Below are positions 2,408 to 59,888 of a DNA stretch of 64,000 bases, in pieces. Source of the DNA: an uncultured Candidatus Saccharibacteria bacterium (GTDB lineage Bacteria > Patescibacteriota > Minisyncoccia > Phycocordibacterales > SBAW01); assembly GCA_964459335.1 (NCBI GenBank), contig CAYWJX010000001.1, positions 33,642 to 97,641 of the forward strand. Reading direction: 5' to 3'. The first letter of the stretch is position 1. The number at the start of each line of letters is the position of its first letter. The notes beneath the pieces are model-generated. The model did no database searches. It saw only the letters and a program-made list of their open reading frames with translations, and was not told where the DNA came from. Position numbers and translations under genes: made by a program.

Positions 2408-3754
2408 TTATATCGGTAAATTTGCCGGAGCTTCGGCGCGACGGCTGGGCATGCGCTGTAAGGTTGGCGTATGCGCCACCTTGCCCGGCAAGTGCCACAA
2501 CGAAGCAAGCTCTTCGGTATTGAGCGCGATGTGGAAGTCTTTGTTCGGAGGATAAAAATACTGCCTTGTCACGTAACCTTGATAAAACTTTTTCTTAAGC
2601 CAGCGTCTGCGGATACCCATAAAATCATGCCATGGAACGTTAAAAGGGCCTACCCAAAAAATAGGTTTAAGACCATTAAGCCCTATACCGTTGGAACCGT
2701 GTTCAAACGAGCGGAACATGGTCGGGATAGGACTGTTGCGAATACTGCCCTTCCACACCTCTTTGCGCGCAATATAAAAAGTGCGGATGCCAACATCAAA
2801 AATGGGTTTATTGAGCTTCTCGCCTATTGCTTTAATAGCCTCTTTGTCTTCATCCGGCACACGCGAAAAGTTTGGAATAGCTTTGCCTTCGGCTGTTTTG
2901 TCGACATTATATTTTTTGCCGATTTCATCTACGACGATTCGGGCCCAATGATCGAGACGCAGGGCGTGATAATGTGCTTCTTCACTGTCTTCCGACCAAT
3001 AGCACTTGGTGTGGCCCCTAATGATGATTTGTGACCATACATGCTCGCCCGGACCGATGGAGCCCATAAACTCAATAACCGAGTTGAGCGGGTCGGTCTT
3101 AAACTCCTCTTTCATGTCGGCCTTGTCCAAGCCCCATGCCTTGTAAGTCATGATGGGGTACGGGTCGGGTTTTTGCAGTTGCTGTTCAACTCCCCACAAA
3201 TCGTACTCGCCGGAGCTCCACGGCACGGCGAGCGTGTAATCGGGCACTTCCGCCACTTGCACCGATGGGTAGTGCGCATACAGTTGCGACTTGATCCTTT
3301 CTTTGAATTTATCGCGAGTCCAAATATAAAAGCGAACTGCGCCTTCGGTCGAAACTATCTCAAGTGAGAACCACGGTTTGGTAAAGCCAAGCCATCCATG
3401 CAACGGTGTATCAACCTCGCCGGTATCGTATAGCGTACGGATAACCAGCTCGGCCGCAGCGGGGCTCTGGGTAATTTCCTCTGGAAGCTTGATTTCAAGC
3501 AATGTGTGCTTGGTGCTCCAGTATTTTTTTTGCTGCCGGTATTCAAGCCCTGCATTGTTTGCTAACAGATACAGTAACACCGGCAACACAAACGGCGCCG
3601 ATGCGAGCAAAAACCCCCATATTAAAATCCATTCATCAAAATGGAAGGGTATCCACACCACCATAAAATACAACAACACCAGCGTAACGTACGGGACGTC
3701 CAACGCATATGTCATGAGATTTTTACGGAACGTCTCCTTATAGAACTCTCCCAT
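2408..3754 (-). CDS. Hypothetical polytopic membrane protein (448 aa), function unknown
   Basis: The N-terminus has several hydrophobic helices and is followed by a large soluble domain. I recognise no motif. Confidence 0.5.
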   Translation of the reverse strand: MGEFYKETFRKNLMTYALDVPYVTLVLLYFMVVWIPFHFDEWILIWGFLLASAPFVLPVLLYLLANNAGLEYRQQKKYWSTKHTLLEIKLPEEITQSPAAAELVIRTLYDTGEVDTPLHGWLGFTKPWFSLEIVSTEGAVRFYIWTRDKFKERIKSQLYAHYPSVQVAEVPDYTLAVPWSSGEYDLWGVEQQLQKPDPYPIMTYKAWGLDKADMKEEFKTDPLNSVIEFMGSIGPGEHVWSQIIIRGHTKCYWSEDSEEAHYHALRLDHWARIVVDEIGKKYNVDKTAEGKAIPNFSRVPDEDKEAIKAIGEKLNKPIFDVGIRTFYIARKEVWKGSIRNSPIPTMFRSFEHGSNGIGLNGLKPIFWVGPFNVPWHDFMGIRRRWLKKKFYQGYVTRQYFYPPNKDFHIALNTEELASLWHLPGKVAHTPTLQRMPSRRAEAPANLPI

Positions 3755-3795
3755 GCAAATATCTTAGCACACGAAAAATCCCCTTTCGGGGGATT

Positions 3796-4839
3796 TTATT
3801 TCAATAAAGTAAACTTGCCGTCTTTGCCGCGCTTAAAGTATTTTTGATTTTGGAGGTTGACCACCACCGTGCCCGGTTTTACATGGCGCTCTTTAAGCAC
3901 CTTTTCGACAATTTGCTCGCGGGTCAAGGGGCCGGTTTCGCGCAAGATGTTGCGGATAACGTCGCGCACGACGCCCTCGGCATATCCCCACTCCTTGAGC
4001 GCGTACATGCCGCGGCCCACCAACACAAAGCGGTCGTCTTTGATAAGCTCGTTGTGCGTAGTGGCCACGTGCGCCGCGCGGTTAAACATCTTTTCGATAA
4101 GCGCGGCAACTTCTTTAAAATGGAGCGGTGAGCCGTGTTTTTTAACCGCCAAATAAGCATAGTCACGAATGCCTTTAGTCCGCACATTGCTCGAGTGCGC
4201 CTGACCCCACTCGCCGAGCGGATTTTTGCCGACTTTTTTAGAAATTTTAAGCCAGCGCTTGATGACCTCGTCGTTGCGATGCTTGTCGTTAACCTCTTGG
4301 AGCTCTTTGAGGAAGCGGTCTATCATCTCGCCCTCGGGTATCAAGTCTTCGTCGGAGAGGCCTTCGTATAGATTTTTGAGCGCGCTCTCAACTTTGGTGG
4401 CAAGCTCCAGGTCGACATACCAACAACGATTGATTTCGTCGTCCTCTTTTTTGTATTTAAACGAGTCGCCAAGCACGAGGAGGAAGTAGATGTGATTTTG
4501 CATCGACTTGTCTTTGGTGATGAAATTAAGCAAATCATCCTCGCATACGATGCCGCCCAAGCTGTCGACAATGCGCTCAAGCTCGTGGAAGGCGGCTTCG
4601 GCCTCGCCAAAAGCAGGCGATTTTTTAAGGGTGCCTAGTGCGTGATTTTCAATCTGGCGAACGCGCTCGCGTGTGATGCCGTATTTTTTGCCTATCGACT
4701 CGAGCGTGACGCGCTCGGGGAGCACGCCCAAACCAAAACGCGCCTCAAGCACCGTGCGCGAGCGCTCGGGGAGGCTCTGGAGCAATTTGCGCACTATTGC
4801 TTTGGGTTTAAAACCGGTTTTGTCGCCTGTGGGTGCCAT
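3796..4839 (-). CDS. Sigma-70 region-4-like HTH protein with a C-terminal winged-helix (HARE-HTH-like) domain
   Basis: The N-terminus SRTVLEARFGLG..LESIGKKYGITRERVRQIENHAL is a typical sigma-70 region 4 / LuxR-type HTH. The C-terminus AYLAVKKHGSPLHFKEVAALIEKMF...VGRGMYALKEWGY resembles the RNAP delta / HARE-HTH fold. Confidence 0.55.
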   Translation of the reverse strand: MAPTGDKTGFKPKAIVRKLLQSLPERSRTVLEARFGLGVLPERVTLESIGKKYGITRERVRQIENHALGTLKKSPAFGEAEAAFHELERIVDSLGGIVCEDDLLNFITKDKSMQNHIYFLLVLGDSFKYKKEDDEINRCWYVDLELATKVESALKNLYEGLSDEDLIPEGEMIDRFLKELQEVNDKHRNDEVIKRWLKISKKVGKNPLGEWGQAHSSNVRTKGIRDYAYLAVKKHGSPLHFKEVAALIEKMFNRAAHVATTHNELIKDDRFVLVGRGMYALKEWGYAEGVVRDVIRNILRETGPLTREQIVEKVLKERHVKPGTVVVNLQNQKYFKRGKDGKFTLLK

Positions 4840-4917
4840 ATCGTGTGTCTTAATATATCACACTCTACTGCGGGGGTCAAACACTGTCAACTCCGACGCT
4901 TTGGTCGGAGCCCCGAC

Positions 4918-7260
4918 CTATGCGTCGGGGATCTCTTCCATTACTACGAAGTTAATAATCCGCCCCGGGACATAAATTGTCTTAACTTCCTTGCCCTTTG
5001 CGAGCCAAGCGGCCACAGCCGGGTTGGCGCGGGCTGCCGCCAGAGCCTCCGCCTCCGGAGCATCCGTAGCGAGTTCAATTGAGCCGCGCACCTTGCCGTT
5101 TATTTGTAGGGCAATAGTAACCGTTGCCGAAACGAGTTTTGAAACATCTGCCGAAGGCCAAGCGGATATGTGGATAGACTCTGCATGCCCAAGATCCTCC
5201 CACAGCTCATCGGCAATGTGCGGCGCAAAGGGCGCGAATATTTGTAAAAACTTTTCCCACTGCATGCGACCGACCGTGCCCTCTTTTTCGAAAGCATTGA
5301 GACAAATCATCATCTGACTTATTGCCGTATTAAATTTAAACGCCTCAATATCTTCACTCACCTTTTTAACCGCCTGCTCAATAATGGAGTCGAGCGCCGG
5401 TACTTGCTCATCCACGATCTTTTCGTGCAGCCTCCACACACGCTCGACAAACCGTGCGGTGCCAACGATTGCATTAGTATTCCAGAGGGTAGTGTTTTCG
5501 AACGGACCTATAAACATCTCATATAAACGGAAGGTGTCGGCGCCATACTGAGCCACTACATCGTCAGGGTTGATGATGTTGCCGTATCGTTTGCTCATTT
5601 TGCGCCCGTCTTCGGCCAAAATAAAACCAAGGAACTCAAGCCGCTTAAATGGCTCCGGCACAGTCACCGCGCCGATGTCATACAAAAATTTGTGCCAAAA
5701 TCGCGCGTAAATAAGATGCCGGACCGCATGGTCACCGCCGACATACACATCTACCGGGTCCCAATACGCCTCACGTTCTTTGCCGACCAGTACTTCTGTA
5801 TTGCGCGGGTCCATAAATCGCAAATAGTACCAGCTTGAGCCTGCCCATTGCGGCATGGTGTTGGTCTCGCGCTTGGCAGGGCCCCCACATGTGGGGCACG
5901 TGGTATTGACCCACTCGGGAATGTTAGCCAACGGTGACTCGCCGGTGCCGCTTGGTTCGTAAGCCTCTACATCAGGCAAAAGCACAGGCAAATCTTTTTC
6001 GGGTACGGCAACGGCGCCATCTTTAGGACAGTGGATTATCGGTATAGGCTCGCCCCAATATCGCTGGCGCGAAAAGACCCAATCTTTGAGCTTGTACATG
6101 GTGGTCATCCGGCCGCCAACCTGCTCTGTTATTTTTTTGCCGTCAACAAATGGCTCATCTTTTACCGGCAAATCAAATTTTTTGGCAAACTCCGCGTCAC
6201 GCTCGTCGTGCGCGGGCACGGCCATAATAGCTCCGGTGCCGTAGCCGTCGAGCACGTAATCGGCAATAAACACCGGGATCTCTTCTTGATTGGCAGGATT
6301 GATTGCTTTGATTCCTTTAAGCTCAATGCCGGTTTTTTCCTTCCCTTCCGCATTGCGCTCGATATCGCTTTTTGCTCGGGATGCTTCGATATATCGAAGT
6401 ACCTCGTCTTTATTTTGTATCTCCGCCAAAAGTTCTCGTATCAGCATATGCTCCGGTGCAAGCACCATATAGGTTGCACCGAAGAGCGTATCCGGCCGCG
6501 TGGTAAACACTTTTATTTTTTTGTCCGAGCTTTTGATAGCAAAATCTATTTCGGCGCCTTCGCTCCTGCCAATCCAGTTGCGCTGCGCTTCTTTGATATG
6601 CTCGGGCCAGTCGAGCAAACTAAGGTCGTCGAGCATGCGGTCGGCGTAGGCGGTTATTTTAAGTACCCATTGCGGGAGTGCCTTTTTTTCCACCTTAGTG
6701 CCGCAACGCTCACACAAGTCGCCGTCCAAGTCTTCGTTGGCAAGGCCGGTCATACATGAAGGACACCAATTGATGGGCTCGTTTGACTGGTAGGCCAAGC
6801 CTTTTTTAAACAGTTGCAAAAAAATCCACTGCGTCCATTTGTAATACTCCGGGTCGGTCGTGTTAATCTCGCGGCTCCAATCGTAGTCAAAACCAATTTT
6901 AGAAAGCTGTGATTTAAAATTGGCTATATTTTTTTCGACCGCCTTGCGCGGGTGCACGTTATTTTTGAGCGCGTAATTTTCGGCGGGAAGGCCAAAGGCG
7001 TCCCACCCCATCGGATGTAAAACATTTTTGCCTTGCATGCGGCAGTGGCGCGAGTAGATGTCGGTTGCAATATATCCGCGCGGGTGCCCCACGTGGAGCC
7101 CCTCCCCCGACGGGTACGGAAACATATCGAGCACAAATGTTTTTGGCTTATCCGAGTTTTCGGCTGTTTTGTATATGCCGGATTCTTCCCACTTTTTTTG
7201 CCACTTTTTTTCGATTTTTTTATGGTCGTACGTACTCATGCGCAAAGGTTCTGTAGACAC
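4918..7260 (-). CDS. leuS: Leucine--tRNA ligase
   Basis: The ORF is 780 aa. It has the class I HIGH motif (PYPSGEGLHVGHPRGY) and a KMSKS motif (KMSKRYGN) and is LeuRS-like throughout. The true start may be the second Met (MSTYDHKKIEKKW, about 7239). Confidence 0.95.
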   Translation of the reverse strand: MSTEPLRMSTYDHKKIEKKWQKKWEESGIYKTAENSDKPKTFVLDMFPYPSGEGLHVGHPRGYIATDIYSRHCRMQGKNVLHPMGWDAFGLPAENYALKNNVHPRKAVEKNIANFKSQLSKIGFDYDWSREINTTDPEYYKWTQWIFLQLFKKGLAYQSNEPINWCPSCMTGLANEDLDGDLCERCGTKVEKKALPQWVLKITAYADRMLDDLSLLDWPEHIKEAQRNWIGRSEGAEIDFAIKSSDKKIKVFTTRPDTLFGATYMVLAPEHMLIRELLAEIQNKDEVLRYIEASRAKSDIERNAEGKEKTGIELKGIKAINPANQEEIPVFIADYVLDGYGTGAIMAVPAHDERDAEFAKKFDLPVKDEPFVDGKKITEQVGGRMTTMYKLKDWVFSRQRYWGEPIPIIHCPKDGAVAVPEKDLPVLLPDVEAYEPSGTGESPLANIPEWVNTTCPTCGGPAKRETNTMPQWAGSSWYYLRFMDPRNTEVLVGKEREAYWDPVDVYVGGDHAVRHLIYARFWHKFLYDIGAVTVPEPFKRLEFLGFILAEDGRKMSKRYGNIINPDDVVAQYGADTFRLYEMFIGPFENTTLWNTNAIVGTARFVERVWRLHEKIVDEQVPALDSIIEQAVKKVSEDIEAFKFNTAISQMMICLNAFEKEGTVGRMQWEKFLQIFAPFAPHIADELWEDLGHAESIHISAWPSADVSKLVSATVTIALQINGKVRGSIELATDAPEAEALAAARANPAVAAWLAKGKEVKTIYVPGRIINFVVMEEIPDA

Positions 7261-11035: not shown

Positions 11036-11076
11036 ATGGAGGTTTAACCTTTGACGGAGGTTTAACCTCCGTAAGG

Positions 11077-19329: not shown

Positions 19330-19698
19330 CTAATGGGGCGCCAAGCCATTGATCATATTACCAAGACAAGTGGCTGCGATTCCTAAATGTTTAGCGAAGG
19401 GCAGAAATTCCTTAATACGCCGCAGATGTTCTACTTCTGCAACGCGCCGCGGTTTGTTCTCTTCCATGATAAGTATGCTGCGGATCTCCCAATGATGTTC
19501 TTTGCGTCCGCCGTCGACAGCGCAAACGACCACCCTAACGTTGAGATGCTTGTCCGCCTTGCGATAAAAATCGAGTTCAACGCGGTCAACGTCGTCAGAA
19601 AAGCTTCCGAAAACGGTAGCCGATCTTACGATTTTGAATTCATTTCCTCCCACCACAACAGGGACGCGACTTTCTGTCTCTCGAAGCCGGAAGTCCAT
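19330..19698 (-). CDS. Hypothetical protein (122 aa), low confidence
   Basis: An ORF only. The surrounding region is rich in hairpins and tRNAs, and the overlapping plus-strand ORF 19387..20010 runs through tRNA-Val and is rejected. Confidence 0.3.
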   Translation of the reverse strand: MDFRLRETESRVPVVVGGNEFKIVRSATVFGSFSDDVDRVELDFYRKADKHLNVRVVVCAVDGGRKEHHWEIRSILIMEENKPRRVAEVEHLRRIKEFLPFAKHLGIAATCLGNMINGLAPH

Positions 19699-19901
19699 TT
19701 TTTCTTTTCCTTCCCCAATGTTCTTGTTGTCCGCTTGGCCTCATGTCAGCGGCACGGTAAAAACTTTACCACTAAATTTAGCCCTGTCCAGTTTTATTAT
19801 GAACAGACAACTTTGTGGTCACGAGTCGACTTTGCTCGTCAGCAAAGTCGCTCGCTACCCCGCCTCACTGCTACGCAAATGCGTAGCAACGTTCCGGCCT
19901 G

Positions 19902-19949
19902 CACCAAGACAAAAGAATCTGCCGCAGGGCAGATTCTTTTGTCTTGGTG
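19902..19949 (-). terminator. Long perfect hairpin at the 3' end of tRNA-Val (22-bp stem) whose right arm includes the encoded CCA end
   Basis: caccaagacaaaagaatctgcc-gcag-ggcagattcttttgtcttggtg. It lies immediately downstream of tRNA-Val on the minus strand. Confidence 0.45.
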
Positions 19950-20019
19950 CACCCTTCAGGATTCGAACCTGAGGCCTCACCCGTGTGAAGGGTGCGCTCT
20001 AACCAACTGAGCTAAGGGT
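19944..20019 (-). tRNA. tRNA-Val (anticodon CAC), CCA encoded
   Basis: The reverse complement GCACCCTTAGCTCAGTTGGTTAGAGCGCACCCTTCACACGGGTGAGGCCTCAGGTTCGAATCCTGAAGGGTGCACCA is a canonical cloverleaf. Confidence 0.85.
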
Positions 20020-29662: not shown

Positions 29663-30976
29663 TTATAACCCCATTTCTTTGTTGCGAAGTTTCCGATGAT
29701 ACGCAATCGCAAAACGATGAGCCTCCGCGTTGGCGAGCAAGATGTCGTGTTCGTGGCCAGTGATAACTCCCCTGTCGCCTTGTATCGCCCGCGGACGATG
29801 CTTGTCGTCTTTGGTGACACCAACCACCGGTATGCGGACGCCGAACGAGGCGAGCACTTTGTCGGCGGCATTAAGCTGAGCCGCACTGCCATCAACCACA
29901 ATAATGCGGGGGCTCGGCCACTCGTTGTGCGCCAGGCGGCGCGAGAGCATCTCGCGCAAAGCTCCAATGTCGTCGCCAGCGCCTGCGGCTTTGATTTTAA
30001 ATTTGCGGTACTCGTTTTTGAGCGCCGTGCCATTTTCGACAACGGTCATCACGCCCACCATCGCACTGCCGCCCAAATGTGCCGCGTCGTAAGCCTCGAT
30101 TCGTGTCCCGCGAATCGCCCCGAGGGAAGTCGAGGGGCTACGAAATTCTTCTTTTATCAAAGAGATATCTTGGATGTGCTTAAGCGCAAATAGTTGGCTA
30201 CGTAACTTGGCCGCCTCTTCAAACCGCTCGGCTTTTGCAAGCTTTTTCATGTCGCGCTCGAGCGATTTTATCAACTCACTTTTTTTACCTTGAAAGAGCA
30301 TCACGATGCGGCGCACAATTTTGCGATACTCTGTTTTATTAATCGCGCCAGAACATACGCCAGGGCACAATCCTATCGCGGCGTTAAAACAGGCTTTGGT
30401 ATGTGGTGTACACGTATCGCGGTACGGAAATATCTTTCGGATAATTTTTAAAGCTTCTTTGAGTTGCGCGCCGTGTGGAAATGGACCAAATGTATGAGCA
30501 GCAGGAAAAGCTCGCGGCTGTTTATGCACGAGCGCAGAAAAATCCTGCGTCTGCTCACCTTGGCAGCTCGCAGCGTGAGCCGCCACAGAATTTTTCTGCG
30601 CTAATTCCTTTCCTCTCACTAACAACACTCTTGGAAAATCCTCTTTAGTAACAACTACGTAGTTCCACGATTTGTCGTCTTTTAAATCGGTGTTGTGTTT
30701 GGGTTTGTGGCGCTTAATTAAATTGGCCTCGAGTATCAACGCCTCCAAAACCGAGTCGGTTGCACGCCACTCGATGCTCGCGGCTTTTTTAACCATCTCG
30801 ACAATGAGCGGCCCGCGCGAGCGGTGGAGGTCGGCGGCAAAGTAGCTGCGCACGCGGCTGCGCAAGCTGGTGGCTTTGCCGATGTACAAGATTTTTTTAC
30901 GCGCATCCAAAAAAAAGTACACACCCGGCCCATCGGGCAAAGTACTCATCCGTTTTTTAAACTGCTCAAGCGTCAT
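29663..30976 (-). CDS. uvrC: Excinuclease ABC subunit C (short form lacking the C-terminal (HhH)2 domain), with an in-frame element of about 23 aa
   Basis: The N-terminal GIY-YIG domain (GPGVYFFLDARKKILYIGKATSLRSRV) and the RNase H-like endonuclease domain (IEAYDAAHLGGS) are present. The inserted peptide is VAAHAASCQGEQTQDFSALV. Confidence 0.9.
   Translation of the reverse strand: MTLEQFKKRMSTLPDGPGVYFFLDARKKILYIGKATSLRSRVRSYFAADLHRSRGPLIVEMVKKAASIEWRATDSVLEALILEANLIKRHKPKHNTDLKDDKSWNYVVVTKEDFPRVLLVRGKELAQKNSVAAHAASCQGEQTQDFSALVHKQPRAFPAAHTFGPFPHGAQLKEALKIIRKIFPYRDTCTPHTKACFNAAIGLCPGVCSGAINKTEYRKIVRRIVMLFQGKKSELIKSLERDMKKLAKAERFEEAAKLRSQLFALKHIQDISLIKEEFRSPSTSLGAIRGTRIEAYDAAHLGGSAMVGVMTVVENGTALKNEYRKFKIKAAGAGDDIGALREMLSRRLAHNEWPSPRIIVVDGSAAQLNAADKVLASFGVRIPVVGVTKDDKHRPRAIQGDRGVITGHEHDILLANAEAHRFAIAYHRKLRNKEMGL
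30532..30601. repeat. Hairpin element copy A (core variant 1) inside uvrC
   Basis: The inverted repeat gcgcagaaaaat / atttttctgcgc flanks the core tgctcaccttggcagctcgcagcgtgagc. The uvrC reading frame is preserved through it. Confidence 0.7.
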
Positions 30977-33842: not shown

Positions 33843-36014
33843 TCAAGCTTTTGTCTTTTTTGATTTTTTTGCAGATGCGCCGCCCATTAAGGCCGCTATT
33901 TCGTCTCTTAGGATGGCGGCAGTTTCGAAGTCGAGGTTTTTAACGGCTTCGGCCATGTCGCGCTTTTTTTGCGCAATAAAGCTGCGCGGATTCTTTTTGT
34001 ACTCGCCCTGCTCTATCTCGAGCATCTCGTGCACTGCCTTGCCGTGCTCGGTGCGCAACTCGTCGGTAATGTCTCGTATTGCTTTGTGGATTGAGACCGG
34101 CGTGATGTGATGCTCTTTGTTGTACGCAACTTGCACCGCGCGGCGGCGGTTGGTCTCGCCTATCGCTTTTTTAAGCGAGTCGGTTTCTTGGTCGGCATAG
34201 AGTATCACGCGACCCTCAATGTTGCGCGCGGCGCGGCCGATGGTTTGTATCAGCGACGTTTCGGAGCGTAAAAATCCTTCTTTGTCGGCGTCGAGTATCG
34301 CCACCAACTGCACCTCGGGCAAGTCGAGCCCTTCGCGCAAAAGATTGACGCCCACGAGCACGTCATAGGCGCCCTTGCGCAAGTCGGTGAGCGTCGTGAT
34401 ACGGTCCAACGTTTCGATATCGCTGTGCAAATAGGCCGCTTTAATCTGCCTATCTTTTAAATAGTCGGCCAAATCCTCAGCCATTTTTTTGGTGAGTGTC
34501 GTGACCATCACGCGCCCGCCATTTTTAATCACCTTTTCAGCCTCATTTAAAAAGTCTTGCACTTGGCCTAGAGAAGGCCGATTCTGTGAGCGCTGCGAGC
34601 TGCCAAGGGGAGCAGAATCGGCCTTCTCTAGGCTTTCAACTGGCAATGAAGAAACCTGCTGATACTCACCTTGGCAGCTCGCAGCGTGAGTCTCATCAGG
34701 TTTCTTCATCGCTCCTCCCGTGACCGGTCGCACAATAATCTCCGGGTCAATCAAGCCGGTGGGCCTAATGATTTGCTCGACCACTTTGGTGGAGTGCGCT
34801 TTTTCATACGCGCCCGGCGTGGCGCTGGTGTAGATGGTCTGCCCCACATTTTTTTCGAACTCATCAAACATGAGCGGGCGGTTGTCGACAGCCGACGGCA
34901 GGCGGAATCCAAAGTCGACTAAATTTTCTTTACGCGCTCTGTCGCCTGCATACATGCCGCCAAGTTGCGGCACGGTGACATGGCTCTCGTCGATGATTGT
35001 CAAAAAGTCGGGCGTGCCATCGGCCTTGTGCGGGAAGTAGTCGAGCAAGGTAAACGGCGGTTGGCCGGGGCTCCGGCCGTCAAAATGCCACGAGTAATTC
35101 TCTATCCCGTTGCAATAGCCAATCTCGCGTATCATCGCGAGGTCGTAGGTGGTGCGGCGTTTTAAACGCTCGGCCTCAAGTAACTTGCCAGCGCGTTCAA
35201 ACTTTTTTAACTGTTCTTTAAGCTCAAGTTTAATATCCTCCACCGCTCGCGCGCGCTCGTCCTCGGGCGTCACATAATGTTTTGCCGGGAAAAGAAATAG
35301 CGACGCCTTTGGCTCAAGCTCGGCGCGCGTTATAGCATCAATCACGCGCACTTTCTCAATAAAATCTCCGTTGAACTCTACGCGATACAGCACGCGTTCG
35401 CCTGTCGGCATTATCTCAACGCTGTTGCCGAGTGCACGAAACGTACCCGGCGTTACATCGGCCGTCGTGCGCGTAAAATATACGCCAATGAGATCGCGGA
35501 TGAGCTCGGCGCGATTTTTTTTGACGCCTGCGGCAAGCTCGAGATGCACTTTGCGATATTGCTCGGGCGAGCCCAAACCATAAATACACGAAACGCTTGC
35601 TACAATTATTACATCACTACGGCTAAGCAGAGCCTGTGTTGAGGCATGGCGGAGCCTGTCAATCTCTTCGTTTATCTGCGCTTCCTTCTCGATATAGGTG
35701 TCGCTCGTGGGGATGTACGCCTCGGGCTGATAATAGTCGTAATACGAAACAAAATATTGCACGGATGCGTCGGGGAAAAACTCTCGATACTCCTGCGCGA
35801 GCTGAGCCGCGAGCGTTTTGTTGTGTGCAATCACGAGCGTAGGCTTTTGCGTTTGCGCAATAACATTGGCCACGGTAAAAGTCTTGCCCGAGCCGGTAAC
35901 ACCGAGTAAAGTTTGATGCCGCTCTCCACTCTTTAGCCCTGCCACGAGCTCGGTAATGGCCTTGGGCTGGTCGCCCGCCGGCTGATAAGGTGATTTGAGT
36001 TTAAACGTTGCCAT
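33843..36014 (-). CDS. uvrB: Excinuclease ABC subunit B, with an in-frame insertion of about 47 aa made of two hairpin elements
   Basis: The helicase motif GVTGSGKTF and the UvrB-specific domains are present throughout. The segment KKPDETHAASCQGEYQQVSSLPVESLEKADSAPLGSSQRSQNRPSLG replaces the short loop between VRPV and QVQDFLNEAEK. Confidence 0.95.
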   Translation of the reverse strand: MATFKLKSPYQPAGDQPKAITELVAGLKSGERHQTLLGVTGSGKTFTVANVIAQTQKPTLVIAHNKTLAAQLAQEYREFFPDASVQYFVSYYDYYQPEAYIPTSDTYIEKEAQINEEIDRLRHASTQALLSRSDVIIVASVSCIYGLGSPEQYRKVHLELAAGVKKNRAELIRDLIGVYFTRTTADVTPGTFRALGNSVEIMPTGERVLYRVEFNGDFIEKVRVIDAITRAELEPKASLFLFPAKHYVTPEDERARAVEDIKLELKEQLKKFERAGKLLEAERLKRRTTYDLAMIREIGYCNGIENYSWHFDGRSPGQPPFTLLDYFPHKADGTPDFLTIIDESHVTVPQLGGMYAGDRARKENLVDFGFRLPSAVDNRPLMFDEFEKNVGQTIYTSATPGAYEKAHSTKVVEQIIRPTGLIDPEIIVRPVTGGAMKKPDETHAASCQGEYQQVSSLPVESLEKADSAPLGSSQRSQNRPSLGQVQDFLNEAEKVIKNGGRVMVTTLTKKMAEDLADYLKDRQIKAAYLHSDIETLDRITTLTDLRKGAYDVLVGVNLLREGLDLPEVQLVAILDADKEGFLRSETSLIQTIGRAARNIEGRVILYADQETDSLKKAIGETNRRRAVQVAYNKEHHITPVSIHKAIRDITDELRTEHGKAVHEMLEIEQGEYKKNPRSFIAQKKRDMAEAVKNLDFETAAILRDEIAALMGGASAKKSKKTKA
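34568..34631. repeat. Hairpin element copy B (core variant 2, opposite orientation) inside uvrB
   Basis: The inverted repeat ctagagaaggccgattctg / cagaatcggccttctctag flanks tgagcgctgcgagctgccaaggggag. Confidence 0.7.
34646..34709. repeat. Hairpin element copy C (core variant 1) inside uvrB, 14 nt from copy B
   Basis: The inverted repeat atgaagaaacctg / caggtttcttcat flanks ctgatactcaccttggcagctcgcagcgtgagtctcat. Confidence 0.7.
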
Positions 36015-36019
36015 CCAAT

Positions 36020-36703
36020 TTACTGTACCGCATTTCGTTCAAACTTGGGAGTTAAACTCCCAAGTAGCCATTGCATTTCCTTTTCTTGCTTTTTACGCTC
36101 AACAATCATTTCTAGAGCTTCATTAGCAAATTTTTTATACGCATCTGGACTCTCAAACTGTCCTAAAATAACTTCCTTTTCGCATATAGATCCCATATGA
36201 CCCAATTCTGAGTCCATATATTCCGTCCAGCTTGAAGCACTGAGCTTGGGAGTTAAGCTCCCAAGCTGGTTATTAAGATTTACATAAACGCTTGTGTGCA
36301 AAAGCTGCTCGTTTGATTCGACATGAACAGATTTATACGTGCCTTGGAATAGGCCGCCGGACCTTGAGTATTTTTCATTGAAATAGTTGGTGTAACCGGT
36401 TCCAAGCCTCTGCATAAATTTTTGAATTCCTTTTTCGGACGTTTGCTTCAAAAGCAAATGAAAATGATTTGGGTTAAGACAATAACACACCACATCAACC
36501 AATTTGGGAGTTAAACTCCCAAGTTGTGTTTCTTTTTGGAAGCGATGTTCAAACAAGCTGCCAATAGGATTAGGCAAATTAAATGCTTGGATACTCTCTA
36601 AAAATCTGCTCAGATCATCTGCGTCTGAGAATATGTCGCGTTTTTCGACGCCACGATTAAACACGTGGTAAAATTCCCCTTGCTCTAAAACTATCGGTCT
36701 CAT
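36020..36703 (-). CDS. IS200/IS605-family HUH (Y1) transposase / REP-associated tyrosine transposase-like
   Basis: GEFYHVFNRGVEKRDIF, the HUH motif NHFHLLL, and the catalytic-Tyr region GTYKSVHVESNEQLLHTSVYVNLNN are present. The ATG start is at MRPIVLEQ. The ORF-track TTG start at 36739 lies inside palindrome P4. The ORF carries three in-frame palindrome copies, each translated LGSLTPK. Confidence 0.75.
   Translation of the reverse strand: MRPIVLEQGEFYHVFNRGVEKRDIFSDADDLSRFLESIQAFNLPNPIGSLFEHRFQKETQLGSLTPKLVDVVCYCLNPNHFHLLLKQTSEKGIQKFMQRLGTGYTNYFNEKYSRSGGLFQGTYKSVHVESNEQLLHTSVYVNLNNQLGSLTPKLSASSWTEYMDSELGHMGSICEKEVILGQFESPDAYKKFANEALEMIVERKKQEKEMQWLLGSLTPKFERNAVQ
36043..36065. repeat. Palindrome P1 (acttgggagttaaactcccaagt)
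   Basis: Perfect palindrome at the 3' end of the transposase CDS. Confidence 0.8.
36243..36267. repeat. Palindrome P2 (agcttgggag-ttaag-ctcccaagct)
   Basis: 10-bp arms. Internal to the CDS and translated QLGSLTPKL. Confidence 0.8.
36501..36525. repeat. Palindrome P3 (aatttgggagttaaactcccaagtt)
   Basis: Imperfect, with one mismatch. Internal to the CDS. Confidence 0.7.
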
Positions 36704-36716
36704 GGCCGCGACTATA

Positions 36717-36743
36717 CCACTTGGGAGTTGAACTCCCAAGTGG
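36717..36743. repeat. Palindrome P4 (ccacttgggagtt-g-aactcccaagtgg)
   Basis: 13-bp perfect arms, immediately upstream of the transposase ATG. Confidence 0.8.
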
Positions 36744-37997
36744 TTAGCGAAATTTATACTGCTCTAAAAAATCGTTTTTAAATTGTGAAAAAGTGCCGTT
36801 TAAAATACTTTCGCGGGCTTGCTCACACAGGCGCGTCAAAAAACGGATGTTGTGCTGGCTCGCGAGGATTTGCCCCAGCATTTCGTGCGTCCGAAAAAGA
36901 TGGTGCACGTAGGCGCGGGTGTGATGCGTGCACACGATGCAATCGCACTCTTTGTCTATCGGGCCAAAGTCGCTTATATACTCCGCATTGGGTATCTGTA
37001 TCTTCCCTTTTGTTGTAAACAACCCGCCGTTGCGGCCGTTGCGCGTGGGGATGACACAATCAAAGGTGTCGACGCCATACTCGATGCCGAGCAAAATATC
37101 CGCGGGCTCGCCAACGCCGAGCCCATGCACCGGTATGTCCTCCGGCAACTCGGCAAGCATCGCAAGCGCCGACTCGAGCGAGTGTTCGCCGTATTTTTTA
37201 CTAAATGAGCCGCCGAGCCCAAAGCCGTCAAAGCCCATCTCGCCGATGGTTTGCGCACTCTTAAGGCGCAAGTCGTCAAACTGACCGCCTTGCGCGATGC
37301 CGTATATCATTTGCTTTTTATTTGCCTCAAAATTTTGACGGTGAGCGGCGAGACTCCGTTTGGCCCACGCATGTGTGCGCTCCATTGCTTCTTTTTGAAA
37401 CTCATAGGTGGCGGTGGGCGCGGTGCATTGGTCAAACGCAAAAAAGATATCCGCGCCAAGCTTGTGTTGTATCTCGACCGAGCGCTCGGGCGTAAAGCGA
37501 TGGAGCGAGCCGTCGATATGCGAAGTAAACGTAACACCGTCGTCGTCGATAATGGCGAGCTTGCCGTGGCTGGTCGCAAGTTCTTCGTCCCAAAAAGCCG
37601 GAAGAGGAAGTGAAGCTGGAGGAGGAGTTGCCGTCTGCTCACCTTGGCAGCTCGCAGCGTGAGCATCCAACAACTCCTCCTCCGGTTCCGGTTTTGAGAA
37701 TTTTGATATCTTCTTTCCAAATCCTTCTCCCAATGAAAATACTTGAAAGCCACCCGAGTCGGTCATGATGGGGCCGTCAAATCCCATAAACTTGTGGATA
37801 CCGCCCGCTTGGGCTATCAACTCCTCGCCCGGCGATAAATATAAATGATATGTGTTGGCAATGACCGTTTGCACGCCGAGCGCGCCAAATTGCGTTACAT
37901 CGACGCCTTTAACATCGGCTTTGGTAGCCACGGCAACAAACGCCGGCGTGTTGATGTCACCGTGCGGCGTATGTATTACTCTGGCTCTCGCTCGCAT
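36744..37997 (-). CDS. tgt: Queuine tRNA-ribosyltransferase, with an in-frame hairpin-element insertion
   Basis: The N-terminus IHTPHGDINTPAFVAVATKADVKGV and the zinc site CDCIVCTHHTRAYVHHLF are present. The inserted segment is ...EEELLDAHAASCQGEQTATPPPASLP... Confidence 0.9.
   Translation of the reverse strand: MRARARVIHTPHGDINTPAFVAVATKADVKGVDVTQFGALGVQTVIANTYHLYLSPGEELIAQAGGIHKFMGFDGPIMTDSGGFQVFSLGEGFGKKISKFSKPEPEEELLDAHAASCQGEQTATPPPASLPLPAFWDEELATSHGKLAIIDDDGVTFTSHIDGSLHRFTPERSVEIQHKLGADIFFAFDQCTAPTATYEFQKEAMERTHAWAKRSLAAHRQNFEANKKQMIYGIAQGGQFDDLRLKSAQTIGEMGFDGFGLGGSFSKKYGEHSLESALAMLAELPEDIPVHGLGVGEPADILLGIEYGVDTFDCVIPTRNGRNGGLFTTKGKIQIPNAEYISDFGPIDKECDCIVCTHHTRAYVHHLFRTHEMLGQILASQHNIRFLTRLCEQARESILNGTFSQFKNDFLEQYKFR
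37618..37683. repeat. Hairpin element copy D (core variant 1) inside tgt
   Basis: The inverted repeat ggaggaggagttg / caactcctcctcc flanks ccgtctgctcaccttggcagctcgcagcgtgagcatc. It is 66 nt long and frame-preserving. Confidence 0.7.
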
Positions 37998-52298: not shown

Positions 52299-52372
52299 TA
52301 GAAAAGCAAAAGTTTAATTTTGCTCCCCTTGGCAGCTCGCAGCGCTCCCAAAATTAAACTTTTGCTTTTCTA
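52299..52372. repeat. Hairpin element copy E (core variant 2), intergenic
   Basis: A perfect 24-bp inverted repeat tagaaaagcaaaagtttaattttg / caaaattaaacttttgcttttcta flanks ctccccttggcagctcgcagcgctcc. The right arm supplies the stop codon of the MBL gene. Confidence 0.75.
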
Positions 52373-56693: not shown

Positions 56694-56767
56694 CAAAAAA
56701 ACAGAAATTTGATTTTGTGAGCGCTGCGAGCTGCCAAGGGGAGCAAAATTAAACTTTTGTTTTTTTG
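56694..56767. repeat. Hairpin element copy F (core variant 2, opposite orientation to E), intergenic
   Basis: The inverted repeat caaaaaaacagaaatttgattttg / caaaattaaacttttgtttttttg (3 mismatches) flanks tgagcgctgcgagctgccaaggggag. The arms are related to those of copy E. Confidence 0.7.
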
Positions 56768-59178: not shown

Positions 59179-59275
59179 ATAGTGTCGCTTAGATTAGTTA
59201 ATACCCTAAGTATAGCAGAGCATTTACACGGCGGGAGCAATGTGGCAGAATGGCGCCGGACAGATCAACGCGAGA

Positions 59276-59836
59276 ATGGAGGGAACGATGAAGAAGAGGT
59301 GGTTCAAAGGAAAACGGAAGATTGTGACCTTAATCGGCATGCCTACTGCACGCAAGACCAGCATTGGCCGCTTGGTTGCAGAAGAGCTCGGATGCGCCTT
59401 CGCCGACATCGACGACCGCATCATAGACCATTTTCGAGTAAGCGGAGTGCAGGAGGTGGTCGACCGTCTTTCGGCAAAAGATTTTGCTCTTGCCGAGGAG
59501 TCAATCGCGATACTGACGGCAATGACCTTGCCGTCACCGGGGATTATTGCAACCGGCGGCAGCGTGGCCTGCTGCAAAAAAGCCATGAAGTACCTCAAAA
59601 AAATCTCGCGTGTTGTACGTCTACACGCCTCGCTCAAGAAGATCACAGAAAGGATCGCGAAGCACCCGAACCGCGGCATTACCTTCAAAAAGGGCGAGAC
59701 TCTTCCCGATTTGTACAAGAGGCGCAAGCCTCTCTACAAAAAGTGGGCGGACGAAACATTGTCGTCCAATGGCAATCGAGCAAAAGTTGCTCGAAAGCTC
59801 AAAAAGAAGCTCATCAGTCAAGGATTCGTCTCATAG
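59276..59836 (+). CDS. aroK: Shikimate-kinase-like protein with a degenerate P-loop
   Basis: IVTLIGMPTARKTSIGRLVAEELGCAFADID aligns with the shikimate-kinase pattern I recall (IVLIGMPGAGKSTIGRLLA..LG..F.D.D), but the Walker A is GMPTARKTS rather than GxxGxGKST. Confidence 0.6.
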   Translation: MEGTMKKRWFKGKRKIVTLIGMPTARKTSIGRLVAEELGCAFADIDDRIIDHFRVSGVQEVVDRLSAKDFALAEESIAILTAMTLPSPGIIATGGSVACCKKAMKYLKKISRVVRLHASLKKITERIAKHPNRGITFKKGETLPDLYKRRKPLYKKWADETLSSNGNRAKVARKLKKKLISQGFVS

Positions 59837-59846
59837 ACACACCGAC

Positions 59847-59888
59847 CCCCGTCGCGGCTTAAGCCGCGACGGGGATTTTATTTTTATT
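59847..59888 (+). terminator. Rho-independent terminator
   Basis: Perfect 12-bp stem ccccgtcgcggc-ttaa-gccgcgacgggg followed by attttatttttattt. Confidence 0.7.

Follow-up and report, generated by a model that had tools for sequence, protein, structure and literature searches.

In this work we have examined a unit at positions 36020-36744, on the minus strand, of a 64 kb stretch of DNA from an uncultured Candidatus Saccharibacteria bacterium (the whole of this stretch is called the window below). The unit holds a gene for a Y1-type HUH transposase-family protein together with four copies of a short palindrome. On balance, we think it is probably a single-gene cassette, in which a Y1 HUH endonuclease/transposase resembling the REP-associated tyrosine transposases (RAYT; REP, repetitive extragenic palindrome) is combined with four copies of its presumed cognate hairpin, including conserved intragenic ones. 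The four-site arrangement, with hairpins at the promoter, in two protein loops and at the stop codon, is conserved across a large clade of Patescibacteria.

The palindrome, ACTTGGGAGTT-N-AACTCCCAAGT, is 19-23 nt long and its four copies in the window all stand at the minus-strand Y1 gene, the only gene of this type there. With a tolerance of up to three mismatches, TTGGGAGYTNARCTCCCAA is matched at 36045, 36246, 36504 and 36721; 0.09 matches are expected by shuffling and 0 of 100 shuffles gave four, which bears out the first-pass annotation, a reading of the sequence alone, in its claim of four palindromes at the transposase gene. The hairpins, to which no strand is assigned, and the gene are as follows.

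36716 to 36744, no strand: hairpin U, ACCACTTGGGAGTTCAACTCCCAAGTGGT, with a 14-bp stem and a 1-nt loop, from a perfect-hairpin scan, just 5' of the ATG.
36500 to 36526 with one mismatch (perfect part 36504-36522), no strand: hairpin A, inside the coding sequence, read as Q60-LGSLTPK-L68.
36243 to 36267, no strand: hairpin B, inside the coding sequence, read as Q146-LGSLTPK-L154, with a 5-nt loop.
36043 to 36065, no strand: hairpin D, at the 3' end of the coding sequence, read as L213-LGSLTPK-F221.
36020 to 36703, minus strand: coding sequence of the 227-residue, RAYT-like Y1 HUH protein, with its stop codon at 36020-36022 and its ATG start at 36703; it begins MRPIVLEQGEFYHVFNRG.

The uniform spelling cttgggagtt-N-aactcccaag which had been given to the palindrome fits the four copies in outline, except that copy A ends in AAA, not AAG, and that copy B has the 5-nt loop listed above. 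As single-stranded DNA the hairpins fold with energies of -14.7 (U), -8.5 (A), -11.2 (B) and -9.7 (D) kcal/mol, and the z-scores range from -3.2 to -7.7, the last being that of U. The peptide LGSLTPK, which is the hairpin of the window lineage spelled in frame as CTT GGG AGT TTA ACT CCC AAG, occupies residues 61-67 (A), 147-153 (B) and 214-220 (D). The listed open reading frame, 36020-36739, opens at a TTG inside the upstream palindrome; the alignment with homologues, however, places the true start at the ATG at 36703, from which the product has 227 residues and not the 228 first given. Hairpin U is untranslated from this ATG and even within the TTG-extended reading frame its frame differs, so the earlier statement that every copy encodes LGSLTPK in the transposase frame is correct for A, B and D and wrong for U.

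The same arrangement was found in 79 homologous loci of Patescibacteria, taken from species-representative genomes and coding for proteins of 44-59 % amino acid identity, which together with the window make 80. Sites were mapped through a MAFFT protein alignment and counted as occupied when they had at least 10 pairs with at most one mismatch; size-matched windows from the same loci served as controls. In nearly all loci the hairpins are positioned at about -40, about +175-195, about +430-500 and about +640-700, the last at or just past the stop codon. In protein terms the internal sites lie at residues of about 60 and about 148 and the last site is the stop codon itself. The occupancy was as follows.

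Site U: occupied in 70 of 80 loci; control windows 3.1 %.
Site A: occupied in 47 of 80 loci; control windows 3.4 %.
Site B: occupied in 42 of 80 loci; control windows 2.2 %.
Site D: occupied in 64 of 80 loci; control windows 5.6 %.

Perfect hairpins reach a density of 3.24 per kb at the Y1 genes, compared with 0.26 per kb in the remaining 1.2 Mb (12.6-fold). Their core is a 23-nt unit, ACTTGG-N11-CCAAGT, conserved in its outer bases and freely variable in its inner ones, and the hairpin foot is (C/A)ACTTGG or ACTTAG. In the protein alignment most homologues read QLGSxxxKL at each of the two internal sites and LLGS at their C-terminal end, and the protein variants LGSSASK, LGGSTSK and LGSRAPK are the spelling expected of compensatory changes in a palindrome. 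More distantly, two of three metagenomic relatives with 35-37 % identity had only an upstream hairpin, of unrelated sequence, and the third, L141, had a family-type hairpin at site A. Three remote relatives from outside the Patescibacteria (Pseudoalteromonas, Skermanella and Collinsella; 24-25 % identity) showed no repeated hairpins in or beside the gene. We also noticed head-to-head double hairpins at sites U and D of L036, L039, L054 and L068, which are two-unit palindromes of 34-42 nt and resemble REPIN doublets, and a 52-nt palindrome within the coding sequence at site A of L070.

The membership of the protein in the Y1 HUH transposase family, proposed in the first-pass annotation, was confirmed at several levels. 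Pfam PF01797 (Y1_Tnp) scored 31.3 bits against a cut-off of 23, with residues 69-142 on profile positions 41-119 of 121, and this match begins directly after hairpin A. The HUH motif is H80-F81-H82 (36458-36466) and the catalytic tyrosine is Y140 (36284-36286), their codons having been checked in the sequence; N144 is probably the third metal ligand. In an alignment of 117 sequences H80, Y140, N142 and N144 are invariant and H82 is conserved in at least 90 %; thus the HUH and Tyr motifs, whose absence had been named as an argument against the assignment, are both present. An AlphaFold2 model built on the same alignment (pLDDT 85.9, pTM 0.83) places the HUH motif on strand 80-87, the tyrosine on helix 131-142 and N144 on or after this helix. 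In a Foldseek search of the PDB the top match was 4ER8_A, the E. coli RAYT-REP complex (E 7e-6), followed by the TnpA proteins of IS608 and ISDra2 (2A6M and 2XM3; E 3e-5 to 8e-4), and all these matches had a probability of 1.00 and TM scores, normalised to the target, of 0.50-0.65. A sequence search of the PDB with the family profile gave no match.

There are 2516 database homologues at E <= 0.001, the best of which are named transposase or RayT and come from Patescibacteria/Paceibacterota. Their length is 205-239 residues with or without internal hairpins, apart from one of the best 120, which has 181. The first-pass annotation had related the large size of the protein, as compared with TnpA, to the palindromes. 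Since homologues with and without internal hairpins are equally long, the size is not explained in this way: the three palindrome inserts contribute only 21 residues, and most of the extra length comes from an insert after helix 1, found throughout the family, and from a C-terminal domain that is conserved. The 181-residue homologue (P0045) was considered as a hairpin-to-hairpin deletion variant and rejected, as it is only truncated at the N terminus. In the predicted structure peptide A lies in the coil 57-68, between helix 50-56 and strand 69-77, and peptide B in the coil 147-155, which belongs to the linker from the catalytic Tyr helix (131-142) to the C-terminal domain; both coincide with a dip in pLDDT. 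Peptide D is in the disordered tail, with pLDDT of 60 or less. The first proposal that the protein tolerates its palindromes thus holds, because the copies sit in predicted loops.

When the gene was compared with its closest relative (P0002 at locus L080, 79 % amino acid identity), the ratio of nonsynonymous to synonymous substitution rates (dN/dS) was 0.119 at a dS of about 1.06. Judged by its sequence, the Y1 HUH enzyme gene is intact and functional, is under purifying selection and shows no decay. From the window alone, four near-identical copies in one gene look recent, and a recent invasion by the flanking palindromes, or decay of the gene, had been offered as the explanation. We now consider both highly improbable. 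The same sites are filled in the 79 distant loci at 44-59 % identity, the reading frame is intact with invariant catalytic residues and a dN/dS of 0.12, the stems are unchanged at a dS of about 1, and region A is about as long where it lacks a hairpin as where it has one.

Comparison of the loci indicates that selection acts on the DNA palindrome and not on the encoded peptide, because the copies are near-identical within loci, compensatory stem changes occur between loci and the peptides change along with them. Among the U hairpins (n = 67), 11 of 12 stem pairs have double-sided changes (174 cells), and the covariation score is 0.539. Shuffles give 0.19, none of the 500 attaining the observed score, and slid registers give no more than 0.12. 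Wobble pairs make up about 1.6 % of the cells. The identity of the 23-nt core has a median of 0.957 within a locus, where 42 % of copies are identical, and of 0.652 between loci, where 0.24 % are; two copies agree in loop orientation about as often as they differ in it. The more alike two proteins are, the more alike are their hairpins (r = 0.39, 0 of 2000 permutations), and close pairs, among them paralogues within one metagenome-assembled genome (MAG), show single compensated differences. The window and L080 have the same sequence in all four stems despite a proportion of synonymous differences (pS) of 0.57. Across loci the encoded peptides read LGSLTPK, LGGSTSK, LGHRMSK, LRGSASK, LGNPVSK, LGCRTPK, CGGPTAT, YRGPTSI and NGHPVSI, and a few loci read the hairpin in a different frame (HLEASLPS). 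Copies at U and D, which are non-coding, match the coding ones in sequence.

Could LGS-x-TPK nevertheless be a native functional peptide motif, the palindromy of its DNA being incidental? The QLGSxxxKL consensus at both internal sites of the protein alignment is in favour of this, and a native motif in orthologues without palindromic DNA was the finding by which the first-pass annotation would have been refuted. An LGS..K-like motif is indeed conserved in the orthologues, but always together with palindromic DNA. As the peptide changes whenever the palindrome does, the motif is best seen as a translation by-product of the conserved DNA element, and its conserved L, G and K go back to CTTGG and CCAAG, the outer bases that are conserved in the DNA. 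The DNA stays palindromic although the peptides that it encodes vary freely, a few loci read it in the other frame given above, and U and D carry the same sequence in non-coding DNA. The probability of a native motif is therefore practically negligible.

In L002, L006, L025 and L040 two or three hairpin types are distributed over the four sites, each of them perfectly palindromic (in L006, U = B and A = D). Since two types can exist in one locus and each is still palindromic, palindromy is maintained site by site and the hairpins are replaceable. This suggests that in these four loci individual hairpins were replaced rather than slowly diverging.

The last base of hairpin U overlaps the tgt stop codon (36744-36746), and its sequence coincides with the -35 to -14 part of a predicted promoter:

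36711 to 36739, minus strand: promoter-like site in hairpin U, with a -35 box TTGGGA, a 17-nt spacer and a TG-extended -10 box TATAGT (TTGGGA-17-TGgTATAGT).

The site has 9 of 12 matches as well as the TG, it is identical in L080, and 7 nt separate the end of its -10 box from the ATG. A TAnnnT box, often with TGn, begins 2 nt past the hairpin core in 28 of 73 loci, and the modal distance from core to ATG across loci is 14 nt. Because of these two short distances, 7 nt from the -10 box and typically 14 nt from the core, the Y1 mRNA is likely leaderless. At the other end of the gene most homologues have their stop codon in or just before the loop of hairpin D, and their proteins end in ...LLGS. 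In the window and in L080 the base in the D loop gives TTA (Leu) instead of a stop, which leads to an 11-residue read-through tail, LTPKFERNAVQ, and accounts for the third in-frame LGSLTPK.

Is it possible that the hairpins act in the mRNA and control how fast the transposase message is translated, how stable it is or how it is processed? In favour of this, A, B and D are part of the transcript, stable stems of 10-14 bp in a coding sequence would impede ribosomes, and IS200 is regulated by an mRNA hairpin. U, however, lies upstream of the predicted transcription start (-35 to -14) and yet is identical to the other copies. The mismatches at A and B show no G.U-compatible excess on the sense strand (A.C 18 vs G.T 6), wobble pairs are as scarce as given above and both loop orientations occur. 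With U upstream of the predicted start, wobble pairs rare and A.C mismatches more numerous than G.T at A and B, we regard a role at the RNA level as very unlikely.

The overlap of U with the promoter also agrees with a different proposal, in which the palindromes are double-stranded operators of a symmetric dimeric regulator, either the Y1 protein or a host factor, with cooperative repression or looping, and in which hairpin formation is irrelevant. A two-fold symmetric site would also give compensatory changes in its half-sites, and the arbitrary loop orientation fits as well. Complementarity, however, is unbroken up to the central 1-3 nt, whereas operators normally have a free spacer. The sole protein conserved next to the palindromes is an HUH enzyme, and single-stranded hairpins are what its structurally solved relatives recognise; sites within the loops of the regulator's own coding sequence correspond to no known arrangement. 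We find operators quite improbable.

We also considered whether the unit is an active IS200-type insertion sequence of about 730 bp, in which U and D would be the left- and right-end hairpins for single-strand excision and insertion and the internal copies would be neutral duplicates. There is a clear likeness to the IS200/IS605 family (TnpA of IS200, IS608 and ISDra2; 2A6M, 2VJV and 2XM3), which shares the Y1_Tnp domain with HUH and a single tyrosine, the single-gene unit of about 0.7 kb and subterminal hairpins, single-stranded in the form recognised by the solved relatives. The unit is IS200-sized with hairpins exactly at its bounds, its genomic context varies among distant species, and several MAGs have two family members. 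A tblastn search with the window neighbours (uvrA, uvrB, tgt, FKBP and others) found no conserved context in the 79 loci. For this reason synteny was rejected as evidence of domestication, the uvrB junction being present only in the closest relative, L080, where similarity starts exactly at hairpin U. It is this same junction, on the other hand, held by a relative of 79 % identity at a dS of about 1, that argues for vertical inheritance. At least seven MAGs have two diverged paralogues; those of the same MAG are at most 75 % identical and have different hairpins, and are thus not recent copies. Identical copies were not encountered. The genes lie inside long contigs, mostly with one contig per protein cluster, and there was no sign of multi-copy transposition. 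Neutral internal palindromes would be expected to decay or be lost, yet those found are perfect and matched to the ends. Moreover, U and D are one symmetric hairpin and not the distinct, imperfect left and right ends of IS200/IS605 elements, internal copies are present, the protein is about 70 residues longer and a profile search detects no sequence similarity between it and solved TnpA. An active insertion sequence is therefore unlikely. As to the L080 locus itself, at 3110-5920 it has a gene of 936 codons (PG_binding/HYR/Big_7) between tgt and the Y1 cassette which is absent from the window, and the boundary of this indel is the 5' edge of hairpin U.

The closest known counterparts of the cassette are the RAYT/TnpA(REP) systems, such as E. 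coli YafM (4ER8) and the Pseudomonas RAYTs. The two share the Y1 HUH fold, 4ER8 being the best of the structural matches. In both, the gene has its own short palindrome on either side (U in 70 and D in 64 of the 80 loci), is present in a single or few copies and, over short distances, is apparently inherited vertically. The palindrome is species-specific and co-diverges with the protein, and solitary intergenic copies exist. In the homologous flanks of our loci we counted 24 own-family hairpins outside genes in 1.2 Mb (0.02 per kb), mostly intergenic. Unlike RAYT systems, the window family has hairpins at the stop codon and at two sites inside the coding sequence, both of them in frame and conserved, and its upstream copy is the predicted promoter. 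Its hairpins are perfect 23-nt palindromes with an ACTTGG foot, whereas REPs are imperfect and tagged with GTAG; a search for the GTAG/GTGG guide tetranucleotide at the 5' hairpin foot found no GTAG in the family hairpins. Nor is the palindrome abundant, with no copy outside the gene in the window and the low density just given in the other loci. The protein, of about 215 residues, also differs by its insert after helix 1 and its C-terminal helical domain, and it scores far below the cut-off of the NCBIfam RAYT model.

In having short palindromic DNA translated in frame in surface-exposed parts of a functional protein, the family resembles the Rickettsia palindromic elements. These are dispersed invaders of many unrelated genes, and no cognate enzyme is linked to them. 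The palindrome of the window family, in contrast, occupies orthologous codon positions within a single gene family, changes in concert with the flanking copies and belongs to a gene whose enzyme is expected to recognise it. Coding palindromes also occur in the mitochondria of Nematomorpha (PMC6649704). The RAYT studies that we consulted deal with the extragenic flanks only (Nunvar 2010, PMC2817692; Bertels 2017, PMC5581495). In the RAYT, REP and HUH literature, where our incomplete coverage gives absence of evidence only, we found no intragenic REP copies in RAYT genes, no mention of this Patescibacteria family, no hairpin that doubles as a promoter and no stop codon in a hairpin loop.

How could such a cassette work? 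By analogy with E. coli RAYT acting on REPs and IS608 TnpA acting on its end hairpins, the protein would bind, and probably nick, the hairpins when the DNA is single-stranded or extruded; solved Y1 relatives and RAYTs recognise single-stranded hairpins (4ER8; PMC2817692, PMC5581495). Since U covers the predicted promoter from -35 to -14, binding or extrusion there may shut off transcription, which would amount to autorepression. U and D would be the counterparts of the REPs which flank ordinary RAYT genes, and the solitary copies elsewhere would be products of mobilisation. A and B perhaps settled in frame long ago, in loops that tolerate them. Gene conversion or enzyme-mediated replacement would keep their sequences matched to those of the flanking copies, and they may serve as extra binding sites.

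Several observations weigh against this explanation. Within the window the pattern TTGGGAGYTNARCTCCCAA (up to three mismatches) has no copy away from the Y1 gene, whereas classic REP systems have hundreds of copies. The NCBIfam equivalog model for RAYTs, REP_Tyr_transpos (NF047646), gave 21.8 bits against a cut-off of 80 and thus fails. As 25-45 % of the loci are without a clear hairpin at A or B, these two copies are dispensable. A palindrome also fits a symmetric double-stranded operator. The covariation alignment was made from the picks of the hairpin finder, so that the percentage of paired positions is partly circular (a structure two columns out of register, the negative control, is 34 % paired); the slid-register and shuffle controls and the 2-6 % occupancy of control windows are free of that circularity. 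Solitary copies, on the other hand, speak for the explanation. Metagenome contigs were scanned for the exact 19-mer of the window lineage, which gave at least 119 stretches, and in the 80 of these that were analysed, 83 of 111 matches were not beside a Y1 gene. Some have the family's AC...GT extension; as a caveat, some may, given the size of the collection, be chance matches or members of another repeat family.

A separate observation in the metagenome contigs (Ga03022xx) is a multi-copy REP-like family, GAATGTTTGGGAGTT(A/T)AACTCCCAAACATTC, which has the window's 19-nt core with a different foot. It is found in L091, L101, L121, L157, L159, L161 and others, with up to four copies in 7.8 kb.

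A more far-reaching idea, to which we give a rather low probability, is that the hairpins are working recombination joints, the Y1 enzyme cutting and rejoining any two of them and so homogenising the copies. Hints in this direction are the positions of the hairpins exactly at module boundaries of the predicted structure, the two-type patterns such as U = B and A = D in some loci, and the weak correlation between loci of the identities of the three modules. If the idea is true, programmed in-frame deletion or exchange of the modules 1-57, 69-144 (the HUH-Tyr core) and 153-215 (the C-terminal module) would be possible. The gene would then be self-editing, with an off-switch through A-B excision of the catalytic core (258 nt, in frame) or with swaps of modules between paralogues. 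We have noted for some pairs among L055/L065/L069 and L016/L040 an N-terminal module identity of 0.53-0.64 next to 0.82-0.86 for the HUH core. The difference hints at mosaic proteins whose breakpoints lie near hairpin A, but with segments so short it could be noise.

The unit stands between uvrB (33843-36014) and tgt (36744-37997), and both of these genes carry another element, CTTGGCAGCTCGCAGCGTG, as the first-pass annotation had stated. This second element is not a simple palindrome and has only CTTGG.AG in common with the window hairpin; no link between it and the Y1 gene could be established, nor is there a second Y1 gene in the window. The ATG of uvrB lies 5 nt past the Y1 stop codon. A -10-like TACAGT is present 7 nt upstream of this ATG (36014), within the C-terminal tail of Y1, and L080 has kept GCGGTA(C/A)AGTA. 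A putative promoter inside the Y1 tail may thus also give a leaderless uvrB mRNA. On the plus strand, antisense to the gene, hairpin A (36500-36536) is followed by TGTTTCTTTT and was scored as resembling an intrinsic terminator. A CRISPR array, attC sites and terminators were rejected as identities of the four hairpins, as their spacing is about 200-260 nt, the 'spacers' are conserved coding sequence and the gene strand has no T-tract.

A second repeat, GCTCAC-CTTGGCAGCTCGCAGC-GTGAGC, has six copies in the window (0.02 expected), three of them intergenic and three translated in frame:

30559-30577, 34589-34607, 34670-34688, 37643-37661, 52328-52346 and 56720-56738: copies of the second repeat.

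In UvrB it forms an inverted pair (HAASCQGE ... PLGSSQRS), nested with a 16-bp inverted repeat, GAGAAGGCCGATTCTG / CAGAATCGGCCTTCTC, and the insert which arises from it comprises about 50 residues between RPVTG and QVQDF. Tgt has one copy (HAASCQGE). The second repeat shares 11 nt (CTTGGCAGCTC) with the cognate hairpin of the homologue in L005. Other palindromes of the window are a 24-bp perfect stem with a 4-nt loop at 19900-19951, inside the open reading frame 19387-20010, and a 14-bp palindrome without a loop, CCCCGTCGCGGCTTAAGCCGCGACGGGG, at 59847-59874, at the end of the open reading frame 59182-59862. At 11054-11072 there is an intergenic ACGGAGGTTTAACCTCCGT beside a direct repeat of GAGGTTTAACCT, the inner stem of which resembles the hairpins of other family members.

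What a domesticated transposase does for its cell, and how enzyme and hairpin co-evolve, is the puzzle of the RAYT/REP systems. The family described here would be a minimal version of such a system in very small genomes, with the cognate hairpin tied to the gene at four fixed sites. It offers about 80 natural pairs of cognate protein and hairpin, and probably hundreds, with compensatory variation from which the specificity of HUH enzymes for hairpins might be learned, also for HUH-tag and other single-strand DNA tools. It is a clear case in which selection on DNA structure overrides the protein sequence at defined codons, and it gives a testable model of autoregulation through hairpin extrusion at a promoter. 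For annotators it means that repeated peptides of the LGSLTPK type are here neither domains or repeats nor signs of pseudogenisation.

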